Part shown: piece after piece, positions 6,676 through 64,000 of the stretch
How positions within the stretch are numbered: position 1 is the first letter of the stretch
How the letters are laid out: every line of letters starts with the position of its first letter
Notes under the pieces: model-generated
Told to the model about the DNA's origin: nothing
Database searches by the model: none
Seen by the model: the letters and a program-made list of their open reading frames with translations, nothing else
Source: Escherichia coli
Lineage (GTDB): Bacteria; Pseudomonadota; Gammaproteobacteria; Enterobacterales; Enterobacteriaceae
DNA length: 64,000 bases
Assembly (NCBI RefSeq): GCF_041886205.1
Contig: NZ_CP169029.1
Strand: one strand, 5' to 3'
Made by a program: the position numbers and the translations under genes

Positions 6676-6841
6676 TGTTTAATCCTTTTGGTTTAAACCA
6701 GATGAAGCATCTTACGCTTACGCCAAAAAAGAAAGCAATTAACGGCGTATGACTTTGCAGATAATTGTGACAAAGCTCTCTATTGACGTAATCCCAGACT
6801 TATAAGGGAGATACTCGCATTGGTGTGCGCTCACGACAGGT

Positions 6842-6874
6842 AAAAAAAAACCTGCCAGCGATGGCAGGTTTTTT
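6842..6874 (-). terminator. rho-independent terminator downstream of typA (hairpin CCTGCCAGCGATGGCAGG flanked by A/T runs)
   Basis: perfect inverted repeat 6851..6868 followed by a U-run on the minus-strand transcript. Confidence 0.6.
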
Positions 6875-6891
6875 ATAACTAAAAAACGAAA

Positions 6892-8715
6892 TTAATCGTC
6901 TTTCGGTGCGCGGTTGGCGCGACGACGATCGTTTTCAGTCAGGTGACGTTTACGAATACGGATAGAGGTCGGAGTCACTTCTACCAGTTCGTCATCATCG
7001 ATGAACTCCAGAGCTTGTTCCAGAGTCATGCGGATAGGCGGAACCAGAACAACGGCTTCGTCAGTACCGGAAGCACGCATGTTGGTCAGTTTCTTACCAG
7101 TCAGGCAGTTTACCGTCAGGTCGTTAGAGCGGCTGTGAATACCGATAATCTGACCTTCGTAAACTTCTGCACCGTGACCGAGGAACAGCTTACCGCGATC
7201 CTGCAGACCGAACAGCGCGAACGCGACCGCTTTACCCTGACCGTTAGAGATCAGTACGCCGTTCTGACGCTGACCCACTTCACCCGGACGTACGTCGTCG
7301 TAGTGGCTGAAGGTGGAGTACAGCAGACCAGTACCGGAAGTCATGGTCATGAACTCAGAACGGAAGCCAATCAGACCACGGCTTGGGATCACGTAGTCGA
7401 GACGTACGCGGCCTTTACCGTCTGGATTCATGTTTTTCAGGTCGCCTTTACGTTCGCCCAGCGCCTGCATTACAGAACCCTGATGCTGTTCTTCAACGTC
7501 CAGAGTCACGTTTTCATACGGCTCTTGTTTACGACCGTCGATTTCACGGAAGATAACTTTCGGACGGGATACCGCCAGTTCGAAACCTTCACGACGCATG
7601 TTTTCGATCAGAACAGACAGGTGTAGTTCGCCACGACCAGAAACGCGGAACGCATCAGCGTCTTCGGTTTCTTCTACGCGCAGCGCAACGTTGTGTACCA
7701 GTTCTTTGTTCAGACGATCCAGGATCTGACGAGACGTTACGAACTTACCTTCTTTACCGCAGAACGGCGAGGTGTTAACGCAGAAGAACATAGAAACGGT
7801 CGGCTCATCAACGGAGAGTGCCGGCAGCGCTTCAACGTTTTGCGTGTCGCAAACGGTGTCAGAAATGTTCAGTTCGCCCAGGCCCGTGATCGCCACGATA
7901 TCGCCAGCTTCCGCCAGATCGGTTTCGATACGTTCCAGACCGAGGTGGCCCAGCACTTTACCGACTTTCGCGTTACGGGTTTTGCCTTCGCTATCGATGA
8001 TAGTGACCTGCTGGTTCGGCTTCACTTTACCGCGCTTGATGCGGCCAATGCCGATAACGCCAACATAGCTGTTGTAATCGAGCTGAGAAATCTGCATCTG
8101 GAACGGACCGTCAAGGTCAACGTCCGGCGCAGGAACGTGATCAACAATCGCCTGATACAGCGGGGTCATGTCTTCCGCCATATCTTCGTGGTCCAGACCC
8201 GCGATACCGTTCAGCGCAGAAGCGTAAACGATCGGGAAGTCCAGCTGCTCGTCGGTCGCGTCGAGGTTAACGAACAGATCGAATACCTGATCCACAACCC
8301 AATCAGGACGCGCGCCAGGGCGGTCAACTTTGTTGATAACAACAATCGGCTTCAGGCCGTAAGCAAACGCTTTTTTGGTTACGAAGCGCGTTTGCGGCAT
8401 CGGGCCGTCAAATGCGTCAACCACCAGCAGCACTGAGTCTACCATGGACATTACACGTTCAACTTCACCACCGAAGTCGGCGTGCCCCGGGGTATCAACG
8501 ATGTTGATACGGTAATCATTCCATTTGATAGCGGTGTTTTTCGCGAGGATGGTAATCCCACGCTCTTTCTCCAAATCGTTGGAGTCCATCACGCGCTCTT
8601 GGGTTTCGGCACGAGAGTCGAACGTACCGGATTGTTGGAGCAGCTTGTCTACCAGGGTGGTTTTACCATGGTCTACGTGCGCGATGATGGCGATATTACG
8701 CAATTTTTCGATCAC
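6892..8715 (-). CDS. typA: ribosome-associated translational GTPase BipA/TypA
   Basis: 607-aa ORF with GTPase motifs ([18 protein letters not shown]); divergent from glnA. Confidence 0.95.
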
Positions 8716-8866
8716 AACTTTGCCTCAGGCATTAGAAATAGCGCGTTATTGTACACGGATTAATCGCACTACAAAACAGGATCACAAACATCCTCCGCAA
8801 ACAAGTATTGCAGAGTCCCTTTGTGATCGCTTTCACGGAGCATAAAAAGGGTTATCCAAAGGTCAT

Positions 8867-8947
8867 TGCACCAATATGGTGCTTAATGTTTCCATTGAAG
8901 CACTATATTGGTGCAACATTCACATCATGGTGCAGCCCTTTTGCACG
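8867..8947 (+). promoter_or_regulatory. NtrC (GlnG) enhancer sites upstream of glnA (TGCACCAatatGGTGCt, GCACtatatTGGTGCA and a third partial site)
   Basis: matches to the TGCACCA-N3-TGGTGCA dyad at about 8867..8883, 8900..8916 and 8929..8947. Confidence 0.75.
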
Positions 8948-13378: not shown

Positions 13379-13480
<102 letters not shown>

Positions 13481-15634: not shown

Positions 15635-15702
15635 AATGGTTCGTCTTTTAGCCGTTTTATTCAGTATAGATTTGCGGCGGAATCTAACAGAAAGCAAGCA
15701 AA

Positions 15703-15945
15703 GAAAAAAGGCGACAGATTACTCTGTCGCCTTTTTTCCTGACTCATAACCCTTAACGGGTCTTACAATCCTTGCAGGCCGCCAACACACCCTGTTTTTC
15801 CTTTAGCCGGAACAATCCGTGTTGATTCCATTTCCGTTTAATTACGTCTCCGGACGTTTGTCTTCCTGACAATCCTCTGTCTTCGCCTCCTGGCGCTCCT
15901 GACCCTCATCCTGAGTCATTGTTCCTGTTAGCGTCCTCGCTCTAT
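15703..15945 (-). ncRNA. csrC: CsrC small RNA (CsrA-sequestering)
   Basis: reverse complement matches CsrC from ATAGAGCGAGGACGC.. to the terminator GGCGACAGAGTAATCTGTCGCCTTTTTT; multiple GGA motifs; between yihI and engB. Confidence 0.85.
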
Positions 15946-16973: not shown

Positions 16974-17082
16974 TAAAAAACGCCCCAGTCATTACTGACT
17001 GGGGCGGCTAAAATATTCAGCCAAATCCGATTACGTGAAGTAAAAGGTCTGAAAGATAGAACATCTTACCTCTGTACCCTAC
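16974..17082 (-). ncRNA. spf: Spot 42 small RNA
   Basis: reverse complement matches Spot 42 (GTAGGGTACAGAGGTAAGATGTTC...) through the terminator CCGCCCCAGTCAGTAATGACTGGGGCGTTTTTTA. Confidence 0.9.
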
Positions 17083-17229
17083 GCGACTAACTTTACTCTT
17101 TTTTGTTCAGTTCAGAAAGCACTTTTTGTAATTTTTTTTCAGTTGTTGCATAGGAATTTCTAATAGCCATCACAAAACGTGACAGCTTATGTTGCTTACT
17201 TACGAAAAAAGGGCATGTTCAGGCGAATC

Positions 17230-26177: not shown

Positions 26178-26297
26178 ATGCCTGGCAGTTCCCTACTCTC
26201 GCATGGGGAGACCCCACACTACCATCGGCGCTACGGCGTTTCACTTCTGAGTTCGGCATGGGGTCAGGTGGGACCACCGCGCTACGGCCGCCAGGCA
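26178..26297 (-). rRNA. rrfA: 5S ribosomal RNA
   Basis: 120-nt match to E. coli 5S rRNA (reverse complement ATGCCTGGCAGTTCCCTACTCTCGCATGGGG...). Confidence 0.97.
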
Positions 26298-26389
26298 AAT
26301 TCTTTTTTATCAGACCGCTTCTGCGTTCTGATTTAATCTGTATCAGGCTGAAAATCTTCTCTCATCCGCCAAAACACCTTCGGCGTTGT

Positions 26390-29292
<2,903 letters not shown>

Positions 29293-29475
29293 TCACAACC
29301 CGAAGATGTTTCTTTCGATTCATCATCGTGTTGCGAAAATTTGAGAGACTCACGAACAACTTTCGTTGTTCAGTGTTTCAATTTTCAGCTTGATCCAGAT
29401 TTTTAAAGAGCAAAACTTCGCAGTGAACCTTTGCAGGTACACTCTGAAGTATTTTTTATTTAATCACTACAGAGA

Positions 29476-29551
29476 TGGTGGAGCTATGCGGGATCGAACC
29501 GCAGACCTCCTGCGTGCAAAGCAGGCGCTCTCCCAGCTGAGCTATAGCCCC
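29476..29551 (-). tRNA. alaT: tRNA-Ala (UGC)
   Basis: 76-nt match to GGGGCTATAGCTCAGCTGGGAGAGCGCCTGCTTTGCACGCAGGAGGTCTGCGGTTCGATCCCGCATAGCTCCACCA. Confidence 0.97.
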
Positions 29552-29593
29552 ATAACATGTAGTTAAAACCTCTTCAAATTTGCGGTGCAAATT

Positions 29594-29670
<77 letters not shown>

Positions 29671-29738
29671 GTAGAGGTTTTACTGCTCATTTTCATCAGA
29701 CAATCTGTGTGAGCACTGCAAAGTACGCTTCTTTAAGG

Positions 29739-31280
<1,542 letters not shown>

Positions 31281-33704: not shown

Positions 33705-34322
33705 TTATTCTTCAATCGCTAACAATTGCAATGAACCACGGCTAAAATCCGCCAGCTTTGCGGAAAATTCAGCCACTTTCGCCGCCGGAAGCGCCACCCG
33801 CAGCAGAACGAATGCCTGATAATCACTGTTGATAATTTTGCCGTCACACTGCCCCAGCAACGCTTCAATGCCGGTTAACTGACTATATTCACATTGCAAA
33901 GTATATTCGGTTAATGGCGTCTTGCGTTGGGTCGTTAGCTGGCGCAGCGCCTGATTCACGCCGCCGCCATACGCTTTCACTAACCCACCGGTGCCAAGCA
34001 ATATGCCACCGTAGTAGCGCACTACCACAGCGGTAATTTCCCCGACGCCGCTGCCCATTAGCTGGGCGAGCATCGGTTTACCTGCCGTTCCTGCCGGCTC
34101 CCCGTCGTCAGAGAAACCCAGCTGTTGAGAATCATCCGGCGCACCCGCCACCCACGCCACGCAATGGTGGCGGGCATCGGGGTGTTCTGCCCGCACCGAT
34201 TCAACAAACGCTTTCGCCGCCTCAACGCCATCGGTATGCGCCAACAGTGTTATGAAGCGGCTCTTTTTGATCTCTTCAACGACCGTGACCGGTGCCGCAG
34301 GAATTAACCAGCTTTCCATCAC
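33705..34322 (-). CDS. yigZ: IMPACT-family protein YigZ
   Basis: 205-aa ORF; start overlaps the pepQ stop by 4 nt. Confidence 0.85.
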
Positions 34323-35650
34323 GCCAGTTTCAGATCCCGGGTCATGTTTTCCACGTTGTTTTCGTGGATCACCACGTTGTCTTCGATACGAATGCCGCCG
34401 AACGGTTTCAGTGCTTCAATTTTCTGCCAGTTGAAGTGCTTGCTGAACTGCCCTTCACGCCACGGTGCCAGTAGCGATTCAATGAAGTAGATACCCGGTT
34501 CGATGGTTAACACCATGCCCGGCTGGAGAATACGGGTGCAGCGCAGGTACGGATATTTTGCCGGTGCCGCGAGGTGTGTACCGCTATCATCCTGCATAAA
34601 ACCGGCTACGTCATGCACCTGCAGGCCCAGCGGATGACCGATACCATGCGGCATAAACGGTCCGGTGAGATTGTTTTCGACCATCGCTTCTTCACTCATA
34701 TCGGTGATGATTTGATGTTTACGCAGCAATTTGGCGATACGCTGATGGAACTGGATGTGGTAATCCACATAGCTGACGCCAGCTTTCATGGTGGCGATCA
34801 GCGCAAGTTGTTCATCATTTACGTCTTTCACCAGCTGTGCGTAGTCGTTGTCGCTTTTTGCCGACCAGGTACGGGTCAGGTCAGCCGCATAGCCGTTATA
34901 TTCGGTCCCGGCATCCAGCAGGAAGCTGCGCATCTCTTCCGGCGCCTGATGATCCAGTTTGGTGTAATGCAGCACCGCAGCGTGTTCGTTGAGCGCCACA
35001 ATGTTGCTGTAAGGCACGTCGGTATCACGATGACCGGTCGCGGTCAGATAGGCAATGTTGATATCGAACTCGCTCATGCCAGAACGGAACGCTTCTTCTG
35101 CCGCGCGATGACCGTTGACCGCCATTTTCTGCGCTTCACGCATACAGGCCAGTTCGTACTCGGTTTTGAAGGAGCGATAGTAATGCAGGTAGTCGATCAC
35201 CCCTTTCGGGTTGATGTTGCTGGCCTCAATACCCAGTTGCAGCGCACGTTCCGGCACCGGACCGATATAACCGATATTGCCGCGCGCAGCAGGCAGCAGG
35301 CTACCAATGCCATCGGCTTTCGGCAGCGCGATCACTTCCACATCTTCAGTCCAGAAGGAGGTCGGCAGCGGTTCGACGTTGTGCCAGTAATCAACCGGCA
35401 GATAGAACCACAGTTTCGGCTTATTCACGCCATCCACCAGCAACCAGCAGTTTGGTACCTGAGTTACCGGCACCCACGCTTTGAATTGCGGGTTCACTTT
35501 AAACGGATAGGGATGATCGTCGAGAAAAACGTTGAACAGTTCGCCGGAGTGAATAAGTAACGCATCCAGCTTGAAGCGCGTCAGCGCATCGCGAGTCCGT
35601 TCCTGCAATGTAGCTATATGATTTTTATAGAGCGAGGCCAGTGATTCCAT
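34319..35650 (-). CDS. pepQ: Xaa-Pro dipeptidase (prolidase)
   Basis: 443-aa ORF recognised as PepQ. Confidence 0.95.
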
Positions 35651-35797
35651 TTTTTACCCTTCTGTTTTTTTGACCTTAAGTCTCCGCATCTTAGCACATC
35701 GTTCATCCAGAGCGTGATTTCTGCCGAGCGTGATCAGATCGGCATTTCTTTAATCTTTTATTTGCATATTTTTAACACAAAATACACACTTCGATGC

Positions 35798-35814
35798 ATC
35801 TGGTACGACCAGAT
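35798..35814 (+). promoter_or_regulatory. FadR operator of the fadBA promoter (ATCTGGTACGACCAGAT)
   Basis: 17-bp palindrome 26 bp upstream of the fadB ATG. Confidence 0.8.
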
Positions 35815-35839
35815 CACCTTGCGGATTCAGGAGACTGAC

Positions 35840-38029
35840 ATGCTTTACAAAGGCGACACCCTGTACCTTGACTGGCTGGAAGATGGCATTGCCGAACTGG
35901 TATTTGATGCCCCAGGTTCAGTTAATAAACTCGACACTGCGACCGTCGCCAGCCTTGGCGAGGCCATCGGCGTGCTGGAACAGCAATCAGATCTAAAAGG
36001 GCTGCTACTGCGTTCGAACAAAGCAGCCTTTATCGTCGGTGCTGATATCACCGAATTTTTGTCCCTGTTCCTCGTTCCTGAAGAACAGTTAAGTCAGTGG
36101 CTGCACTTTGCCAATAGCGTGTTTAATCGCCTGGAAGATCTGCCGGTGCCGACCATTGCTGCCGTCAACAGCTATGCGCTGGGCGGTGGCTGCGAATGCG
36201 TGCTGGCGACCGATTATCGTCTGGCGACGCCGGATCTGCGCATCGGTCTGCCGGAAACCAAACTGGGCATCATGCCGGGCTTTGGCGGTTCTGTACGTAT
36301 GCCACGTATGCTGGGCGCTGACAGTGCGCTGGAAATCATTGCCGCCGGTAAAGATGTCGGCGCGGATCAGGCGCTGAAAATCGGTCTGGTGGATGGGGTA
36401 GTCAAAGCAGAAAAACTGGTTGAAGGGGCGATGGCGATTTTACGCCAGGCCATTAACGGCGACCTCGACTGGAAAGCAAAACGTCAGCCGAAGCTGGAAC
36501 CGCTAAAACTGAGCAAGATTGAAGCCACCATGAGCTTCACCATCGCTAAAGGGATGGTCGCACAAACGGCGGGGAAACATTATCCGGCCCCCATCACCGC
36601 AGTAAAAACCATTGAAGCTGCGGCCCGTTTTGGTCGTGAAGAAGCCTTAAATCTGGAAAACAAAAGTTTTGTCCCGCTGGCACATACCAACGAAGCCCGC
36701 GCACTGGTCGGCATTTTCCTTAATGATCAATATGTAAAAGGCAAAGCGAAGAAACTCACCAAAGACGTTGAAACACCGAAACAGGCCGCTGTACTGGGCG
36801 CAGGCATTATGGGCGGCGGTATCGCTTACCAGTCTGCGTGGAAAGGCGTGCCGGTTGTCATGAAAGATATCAACGACAAGTCGTTAGCCCTCGGCATGAC
36901 TGAAGCCGCGAAACTACTGAACAAGCAGCTTGAGCGCGGCAAGATCGATGGTCTGAAACTGGCTGGCGTGATCTCCACGATCCACCCAACGCTCGACTAC
37001 GCCGGATTTGACCGCGTGGATGTTGTGGTAGAAGCGGTTGTCGAAAACCCGAAAGTGAAAAAAGCCGTACTGGCAGAAACCGAGCAGAAAGTACGCCCGG
37101 ATACCGTGCTGGCGTCTAACACTTCAACCATTCCTATCAGCGAACTGGCCAACGCGCTGGAACGTCCGGAAAACTTCTGCGGGATGCACTTCTTTAACCC
37201 GGTCCACCGAATGCCGTTGGTGGAAATTATTCGCGGCGAGAAAAGCTCCGACGAAACCATCGCGAAAGTCGTCGCCTGGGCGAGCAAGATGGGCAAAACG
37301 CCGATTGTGGTTAACGACTGCCCCGGCTTCTTCGTCAACCGCGTGCTGTTCCCGTATTTCGCCGGTTTCAGCCAGTTGCTGCGCGACGGCGCGGATTTCC
37401 GCAAGATCGACAAAGTGATGGAAAAACAGTTTGGCTGGCCGATGGGTCCGGCATATCTGCTGGATGTCGTGGGCATTGATACCGCGCATCACGCTCAGGC
37501 TGTCATGGCAGCAGGCTTCCCGCAGCGGATGCAGAAAGATTATCGCGATGCCATCGACGCGCTGTTTGATGCCAACCGCTTTGGTCAGAAGAACGGCCTC
37601 GGTTTCTGGCATTATAAAGAAGACAGCAAAGGTAAGCCGAAGAAAGAAGAAGACGCCGCTGTTGACGACCTGCTGGCAGAAGTGAGCCAGCCGAAGCGCG
37701 ATTTCAGCGAAGAAGAGATTATCGCCCGCATGATGATCCCGATGGTCAACGAAGTGGTCCGCTGTCTGGAAGAGGGCATTATCGCCACTCCGGCGGAAGC
37801 GGATATGGCGCTGGTCTACGGCCTGGGCTTCCCTCCGTTCCACGGCGGCGCGTTCCGCTGGCTGGACACCCTCGGTAGCGCAAAATACCTCGATATGGCA
37901 CAGCAATATCAGCACCTCGGCCCGCTGTATGAAGTGCCGGAAGGTCTGCGTAATAAAGCGCGTCATAACGAACCGTACTATCCTCCGGTTGAGCCAGCCC
38001 GTCCGGTTGGCGACCTGAAAACGGCTTAA
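35840..38029 (+). CDS. fadB: fatty-acid oxidation complex alpha subunit (enoyl-CoA hydratase / 3-hydroxyacyl-CoA dehydrogenase)
   Basis: 729-aa product from [16 protein letters not shown]; track ORF begins 42 codons upstream. Confidence 0.97.
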
Positions 38030-39202
<1,173 letters not shown>

Positions 39203-39208
39203 GCACTT

Positions 39209-39392
<184 letters not shown>

Positions 39393-44845: not shown

Positions 44846-47088
<2,243 letters not shown>

Positions 47089-63842: not shown

Positions 63843-64000
63843 ATGTTACGTATGTTTATCCCAACATCTAACGGTAAGATTTCAAGACGTCAGTATATAT
63901 TTTCATTTATTTTAACAAATCTGATTTGTATCCTGCTTATATCTTTTTTTTCCAATGCTGGCTCAGTATTTTTCGTTTTAATATTTACCATTCTTTTACA
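63843..64000 (+). CDS. yigG: small inner-membrane protein, 3'-truncated by window edge
   Basis: [39 protein letters not shown].. runs off the window end; position after rarD. Confidence 0.6.

Follow-up and report, generated by a model that had tools for sequence, protein, structure and literature searches.

Results

Gene context of the pepQ/fadB intergenic region

The window, i.e., the whole 64-kb stretch of DNA analyzed here, is part of the E. coli chromosome, and the region under study is the pepQ / fadB-fadA locus. According to the ORF list and RefSeq, positions 35651-35839 constitute a 189-bp intergenic gap between the divergently oriented genes pepQ and fadB, with fadA following as the second gene of the fadBA operon (Table 1). 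In RefSeq, both K-12 MG1655 and a 100%-identical genome are annotated with the same genes flanking the gap, pepQ to one side and fadB-fadA to the other. A segment of 701 bp around the operator described below found a match in 5425 of 5426 complete E. coli genomes, in one case at 100% identity. Over positions 35400-36100, an identity of 99% or more to the window was reached by only 323 of these 5425 genomes, so the window derives from a minority lineage. The fadR gene, which is located outside the window, is present in 5422/5426 complete E. coli genomes.

Relative to K-12 MG1655, the intergenic region differs at three bases only. One is an A (G in K-12) at 35760, which falls within the ArcA repeats as published; the other two are the dinucleotide TG (CT in K-12) at 35795-35796, corresponding to positions -3/-2 directly 5' of the operator. 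From 35797 up to the fadB ATG, operator included, the two sequences are identical. Small ORFs in the gap are confined to one of 30 aa on the minus strand that overlaps the pepQ start, and to the spurious extension of fadB dealt with below.

Elsewhere in the window lie an rRNA operon (16S, tRNA-Ile, tRNA-Ala, 23S, 5S) and the genes of the small RNAs CsrC, Spot 42, Erse, ES222, and STnc370. The Rfam family naRNA4, a REP-derived nucleoid-associated RNA, is represented by two minus-strand matches, at 13400-13477 and at 39261-39338, the latter in the fadA-fre gap just downstream of the fadA stop codon.

Table 1. Coordinates of genes, regulatory elements, and RNA genes in the window.
Feature	Position	Strand	Basis or remark
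pepQ CDS (Xaa-Pro dipeptidase)	34319-35650	-	ORF list (443 aa) and RefSeq of the 100%-identical genome
Spurious 42-codon N-terminal extension of fadB (promoter and 5'-UTR DNA)	35714-35839	+	GTG start of the mechanically called ORF
Conserved block (T/C)GTGATC-N4-YWGCA-(A/T)3 with CRP-like half-site	35726-35747		Alignment; center 35736.5
ArcA-P site, four direct repeats, core box GTGTTAAAAATATGCAAA	35747-35789	-	Published 43-mer, 1 mismatch (35760)
Putative FIS site TTGCATATTTTTAACACAA	35762-35780	+	Exact single match in the window
Likely -35 hexamer TTGCAT	35762-35767	+	Inferred from spacing
Likely weak -10 hexamer CACACT	35785-35790	+	Inferred; 17 bp after TTGCAT, 7 nt before +1
fadBA transcription start (+1)	35798	+	Derived from the numbering of two papers
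FadR operator ATCTGGTACGACCAGAT	35798-35814	+	+1 to +17; K-12 identity, literature, conservation
Shine-Dalgarno GGAG	35830-35833	+	6 nt before the fadB ATG
fadB CDS (729 aa; alpha subunit of the fatty-acid oxidation complex)	35840-38029	+	RefSeq; PDB 6tnm/1wdk; tblastn
fadA CDS (387 aa; thiolase; operon gene 2)	38039-39202	+	ORF list and RefSeq
rRNA operon	26180-31280		
CsrC	15692-15945		
Spot 42	16974-17092		
Erse	46483-46734		
ES222	8797-8904		
STnc370	6839-6907		

The inverted repeat and its identity with the K-12 fadBA operator

A first-pass annotation, made from the sequence, had placed a FadR operator at the fadBA promoter. The 17-mer ATCTGGTACGACCAGAT is indeed found on the plus strand at precisely the coordinates given there, and base for base it equals the characterized fadBA operator of K-12. 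Its description as a perfect 17-bp palindrome had to be corrected, as the reverse complement of the 17-mer differs at 3 positions: two 7-bp arms, ATCTGGT and ACCAGAT, form exact inverted repeats around a non-symmetric ACG, in which positions 8 (A) and 10 (G) are non-complementary, which leaves symmetry at 14 of the 16 pairable positions. For matches to the 17-mer with no more than 3 mismatches, 0.09 occurrences are expected by chance in the 64-kb window, and this site alone was found when both strands were considered. Likewise, a perfect CTGGT-N3-ACCAG occurs nowhere else in the window. Three GATC (Dam) sites occur in the intergenic region (35732-35735, 35737-35740, and 35812-35815), the last one overlapping the right end of the operator.

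The literature on this element is extensive. The identical 17-mer is given as the FadR operator 'fadO' used in synthetic biosensors (PMC7372789), and the FadR-DNA crystal complex contains FadB operator DNA, CATCTGGTACGACCAGATC, with base-specific FadR contacts made through the TGG of each half-site (PMC3592433). A fadBA EMSA probe carrying the same 17-mer was bound by wild-type FadR and not by the W60G mutant (PMC4259882), and a fadBA-lacZ fusion was derepressed 5-10-fold by fadR deletion (PMC3460868). In a 2022 review (PMC9329746), the FadR consensus is given as aaCTGGTCnGACC(T/A)Gtt, and the site at fadBA is described as overlapping the start of transcription. Compared with the published core consensus CTGGTCNGACCWG, the operator fits at 12/13 core positions and is the sole match with one mismatch in the 64 kb; matches with two mismatches numbered 8, versus 5.7 expected, and thus were at chance level.

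The K-12 fadBA operator (also termed 'OB' or fadO; crystal structures, e.g., PDB 1H9T) shares with the present one not only the 17-mer but also the 3' flank up to the ATG, and it is placed alike relative to the -35/-10 elements, the ArcA site, and the fadB start; the window strain departs from it merely by the three bases upstream of the operator mentioned above. The FadR sites of other E. coli genes (fadL, fadD, fabA, fabB) resemble the fadB site in being laid out as a 17-bp dyad with CTGGT as its left half, and the repressing ones among them overlap -10/+1, as is the case at fadBA. The fadB site differs from them in its right half (ACCAGAT), which is far more symmetric, and in having A rather than C at position 8. 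It further differs from the fabA and fabB sites in its effect, since these activate from an upstream location whereas the fadB site represses. Taken together, we consider it practically certain that positions 35798-35814 represent the FadR operator of the E. coli fadBA operon, which is a textbook site and as such already known.

Promoter anatomy and the ArcA site

The fadBA promoter was placed on the basis of published coordinates and of conservation. Feng and Cronan (2012) reported TTGCATATTTTTAACACAA as a putative FIS site spanning -36 to -18 of the fadBA promoter (PMC3460868); as this sequence maps to 35762-35780, +1 corresponds to 35798. An ArcA site at fadB, detected by ChIP-seq, is included in the supplementary tables of Park et al. 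(2013); it consists of four direct repeats, extends from -50 to -9, and is represented by the 43-mer GTGTGTATTTTGTGTTAAAAATATGCAAACAAAAGATTAAAGA; with its -9 end at 35789, +1 comes to lie at 35797/35798. In the part of the Kim 2012 genome-wide transcription start supplementary data that was available, there was no fadB or pepQ entry. The original footprinting paper from 1992 reportedly may number the operator slightly further downstream, by a few bases.

With +1 at 35798, the operator covers +1 to +17 and directly follows the likely weak -10 hexamer. Its location between promoter and fadB ATG, as originally proposed, is therefore borne out by the hexamers lying upstream and by the published numbering. 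A scan of positions 35500-36000 with the sigma-70 consensus found no promoter, consistent with a weak, heavily regulated promoter. The CACAC block of the likely -10 hexamer is 97% conserved across 24 genera. The ArcA site overlies the weak -35/-10 elements just upstream of the FadR operator, and in the alignment of 24 genera the blocks TTTGCA and TTAACA, 11 bp apart, were invariant and, together with CACAC, coincided with the TGTTA-like ArcA repeats and the promoter hexamers. Further upstream of the promoter, a 9-bp direct repeat, GAGCGTGAT, occurs twice with 16 bp between the start points (35710-35718 and 35726-35734).

Conservation of the operator

A FadB search of representative bacterial genomes yielded 80 loci, 72 from Enterobacterales and 8 from Vibrionaceae, all of which matched from residue 1. 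The motif TCTGGT-N3-ACCAG was present at every one of the 72 Enterobacterales fadB loci (about 40 genera), located 22-28 nt and mostly 25-26 nt before the ATG. In the 24-genus alignment, the majority fractions amounted to 1.00 and 0.99 for the two arms, as opposed to 0.58 for the center triplet and 0.63-0.73 for the flanks. The fadB loci of Vibrionaceae (n = 8) have consensus-like sites of the AACAGGTCAAACCAGTT type instead, at a distance of 39-57 nt upstream. Within the species, the 30-mer encompassing the operator (35797-35826) was found unchanged in 5414/5426 complete E. coli genomes. Comparison of this number with the 5425 matches to the region points to about 11 complete genomes in which the operator, or the sequence immediately 3' of it, is altered.

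The center triplet (35805-35807 and its homologs) follows a pattern of its own. It reads A-N-G (ATG, ACG, AAG) in Enterobacteriaceae and Erwiniaceae, and the reverse complement thereof, C-N-T (CAT, CGT), in Yersiniaceae, Hafniaceae, and Morganellaceae. Thus, a TGGTC half is paired with a TGGTA half in each of the 72 operators, irrespective of orientation, and the fully symmetric center C-N-G was encountered in 0/72 Enterobacterales fadB operators. This distribution probably reflects one or two evolutionary events only.

The translation start of fadB

The mechanical ORF caller assigned fadB a GTG start and a length of 771 aa (35714-38029), and the first-pass annotation had regarded this ORF as over-extended through the operator, naming instead the ATG at 35840, preceded by GGAGACTGAC, as the real start. 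We arrive at the same assignment. The sequence GGAGACTGAC followed by ATG is present as described, the complete stretch between operator and start codon being CACCTTGCGGATTCAGGAGACTGAC, and the annotated protein has 729 aa in RefSeq as well as in K-12. A GGAG core precedes the homologous ATG at 80/80 loci, in nearly all of them as AGGAGA. On the protein level, alignment of the 771-aa ORF with the FadB structure from Pseudomonas fragi (1wdk) pairs residue 43 of the ORF with residue 1 of the structure, and in the crystallized E. coli FadB construct (6tnm) the sequence MLYKGD directly follows the tag.

That GTG 35714 would nevertheless be the true start of a 771-aa FadB, with the operator inside the coding sequence, draws on the open reading frame from 35714 in E. 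coli and on nothing more, and we regard it as scarcely credible. The published +1 lies 84 nt downstream of this GTG, which also precedes the -35 element and therefore cannot be on the fadBA mRNA. In most loci outside the genus, the frame upstream of the ATG stays open for just 1-29 codons, and the variable operator-ATG distance (22-28 nt, mostly 25 or 26) entails 1-nt indels that break the frame. Together with the 729-aa annotations and the N-termini in 1wdk and 6tnm, these upstream stops and frame-breaking indels make the start of fadB at ATG 35840 secure.

Position weight matrix scans

A FadR matrix scan, which had been suggested as a check of the site, proved uninformative. The leave-one-out PWM was trained on six other EMSA-proven E. 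coli sites, taken from the primer sequences in PMC4259882. With this six-site matrix, the fadB site ranked 10-21 among 127,968 positions, and no position in the window exceeded the maximum of the shuffled sequences, the training set being small and the right halves of its sites degenerate. In a dyad model, with the better-conserved left half applied to both halves, the fadB site came first, at a score of 15.2 bits that was still inside the range of the shuffles (13.4 +/- 1.5). Motif scoring on its own would not have identified the fadB operator. As a PWM built from few and degenerate sites is non-discriminating, the identification rests on operator identity and conservation.

The top match of the symmetrised FadR PWM, likewise at 15.2 bits, was a near-palindrome downstream of rarD (AACAAATCTGATTTGTA, 63914-63930). 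This match is probably due to chance, considering that shuffled sequences scored 13.5 +/- 1.3 with a maximum of 17.3.

A conserved CRP-like block upstream of the promoter

Besides the operator, the alignments revealed a second, upstream element that is as conserved as the operator itself and whose distance to the operator is fixed at 67-69 nt in all 73 sequences (the 72 Enterobacterales loci plus the window). Among the 58 distinct 22-mers derived from these 73 sequences, GTGATC and CA were invariant. The center of the block, 35736.5, corresponds to -61.5 relative to +1 at 35798, which is the position of class I CRP sites. When compared with the motif TGTGA-N6-TCACA, one half-site agreed well (4-5 of 5 positions on the left) and the other poorly (2-3 of 5 on the right), with C16 never present, so that the motif with both half-sites is not matched. 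Seen against class I CRP sites such as that of lac (centered at -61.5), the fadBA block thus has the same center, an invariant (T)GTGA half, a variable spacer, and invariant C18/A19; it differs in lacking C at position 16 throughout and in having mostly G at position 17, and E. coli itself has CGTGA.

It has been reported that crp deletion lowers expression of fadBA-lacZ; the authors found no CRP site and proposed an indirect effect via FIS (PMC3460868). CRP control of fadBA was listed as an open gap in the 2022 review (PMC9329746). The available portion of the CRP ChIP-exo supplementary data held no fadB or pepQ entry. Judged from its sequence and position, the putative block at 35726-35747 might be the 'missing' direct cAMP-CRP site of fadBA, composed of one strong and one degenerate half-site, an assignment that we put forward tentatively and with the balance somewhat against it. 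An alternative, which we considered by eye, is that the block constitutes the -35/-10 region of pepQ on the minus strand; GTGATC would then sit in the spacer, leaving its invariance unexplained.

Discussion

The location of the operator suggests how repression and derepression of fadBA may proceed. In the absence of long-chain fatty acids, a FadR dimer would occupy +1 to +17, adjoining the weak -10 element, and the bound protein would block productive binding or escape of RNA polymerase, keeping fadBA off; steric occlusion as the repression step is what we infer from the geometry of the site. Upon import of fatty acids, FadD would generate long-chain acyl-CoA, whose binding to FadR would cause its release from the DNA and hence derepression. 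ArcA-P, bound at the adjacent upstream site, would add anaerobic repression, in line with a report that ArcA-P repression is synergistic with that by FadR at fadBA (PMC3460868). For this scheme, the present analysis supplies the identity of the operator sequence, its location and conservation, the fadB start codon, and the finding that E. coli possesses fadR; FadR binding, acyl-CoA-induced release, the transcription start, and ArcA binding are derived from the literature.

If +1 is the first base of the operator, the fadBA mRNA begins with these 17 nt, which raises the question of whether the repeat exerts its effect mainly, or in addition, as RNA, in the form of a 5'-terminal hairpin. 5'-terminal stem-loops stabilize E. 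coli mRNAs, and a hairpin at this position could shield the derepressed transcript from 5'-end-dependent decay (RppH, RNase E). The predicted fold of positions 35798-35860 indeed includes, at nt 2-16, a stem of 6 bp capped by a 3-nt loop, leaving one unpaired 5' nucleotide, at a total of -16 kcal/mol compared with -10.5 +/- 2.4 for shuffled sequences (z = -2.3). Against such a function stands that the Vibrionaceae sites are imperfect palindromes (AACAGGT/ACCAGTT), which fits a protein motif better than a helix, and that FadR binding already explains the conservation fully. As the arms never vary in Enterobacterales, they offer no covariation that would separate RNA pairing from protein contact. 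An Rfam scan of the pepQ/fadB intergenic region gave no family match. On the whole, we consider a role of the repeat in RNA unlikely, and we favor its function as a DNA operator.

It might also be asked whether the operator serves another regulator of the GntR family that recognizes a GGT-N3-ACC core, such as the pyruvate-sensing PdhR, which would then replace FadR or compete with it. The box of PdhR, AATTGGTnnnACCAATT, belongs to a paralogous GntR/FadR-family system; it has the TGGT-N3-ACCA core and the half-site spacing in common with the fadBA operator, which agrees with it at 10/14 specified positions, and differs in the flanks (AAT/ATT versus ATC/GAT in the fadBA operator). Results from gSELEX, as far as the accessible parts of the study go, show PdhR on several other FadR-bound fad promoters (PMC7660256). 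In those same parts, however, the fadB mentions found all belong to the description of the pathway and six fad genes are placed under PdhR, and fadBA appears not to be among the PdhR targets (PMC7660256). Moreover, binding of FadR to exactly this sequence has been established structurally and by EMSA (PMC3592433, PMC4259882). An assignment to PdhR or a related regulator is hence very improbable, and the site is best regarded as a FadR operator. A chance inverted repeat devoid of function, in favor of which one could cite the weak PWM discrimination and nothing else, can be dismissed as practically negligible in view of the 0.09 sites expected in the window, the invariance of the arms across Enterobacterales, and the identity to a biochemically defined operator.

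The result re-identifies one of the best-characterized E. coli operators along with a routine ORF over-extension. In this instance, a regulatory site was recognized and a start codon corrected from sequence alone, without tools. A naive PWM scan would have missed the confirmation, which was supplied by operator identity and phylogenetic footprinting.

With respect to the biology of the operon, the CRP-like block offers a lead. If it binds CRP, activation of fadBA by CRP would be direct and not mediated via FIS as suggested by Feng and Cronan (2012), and the block turns the question of direct versus indirect CRP action at fadBA into a simple experiment.
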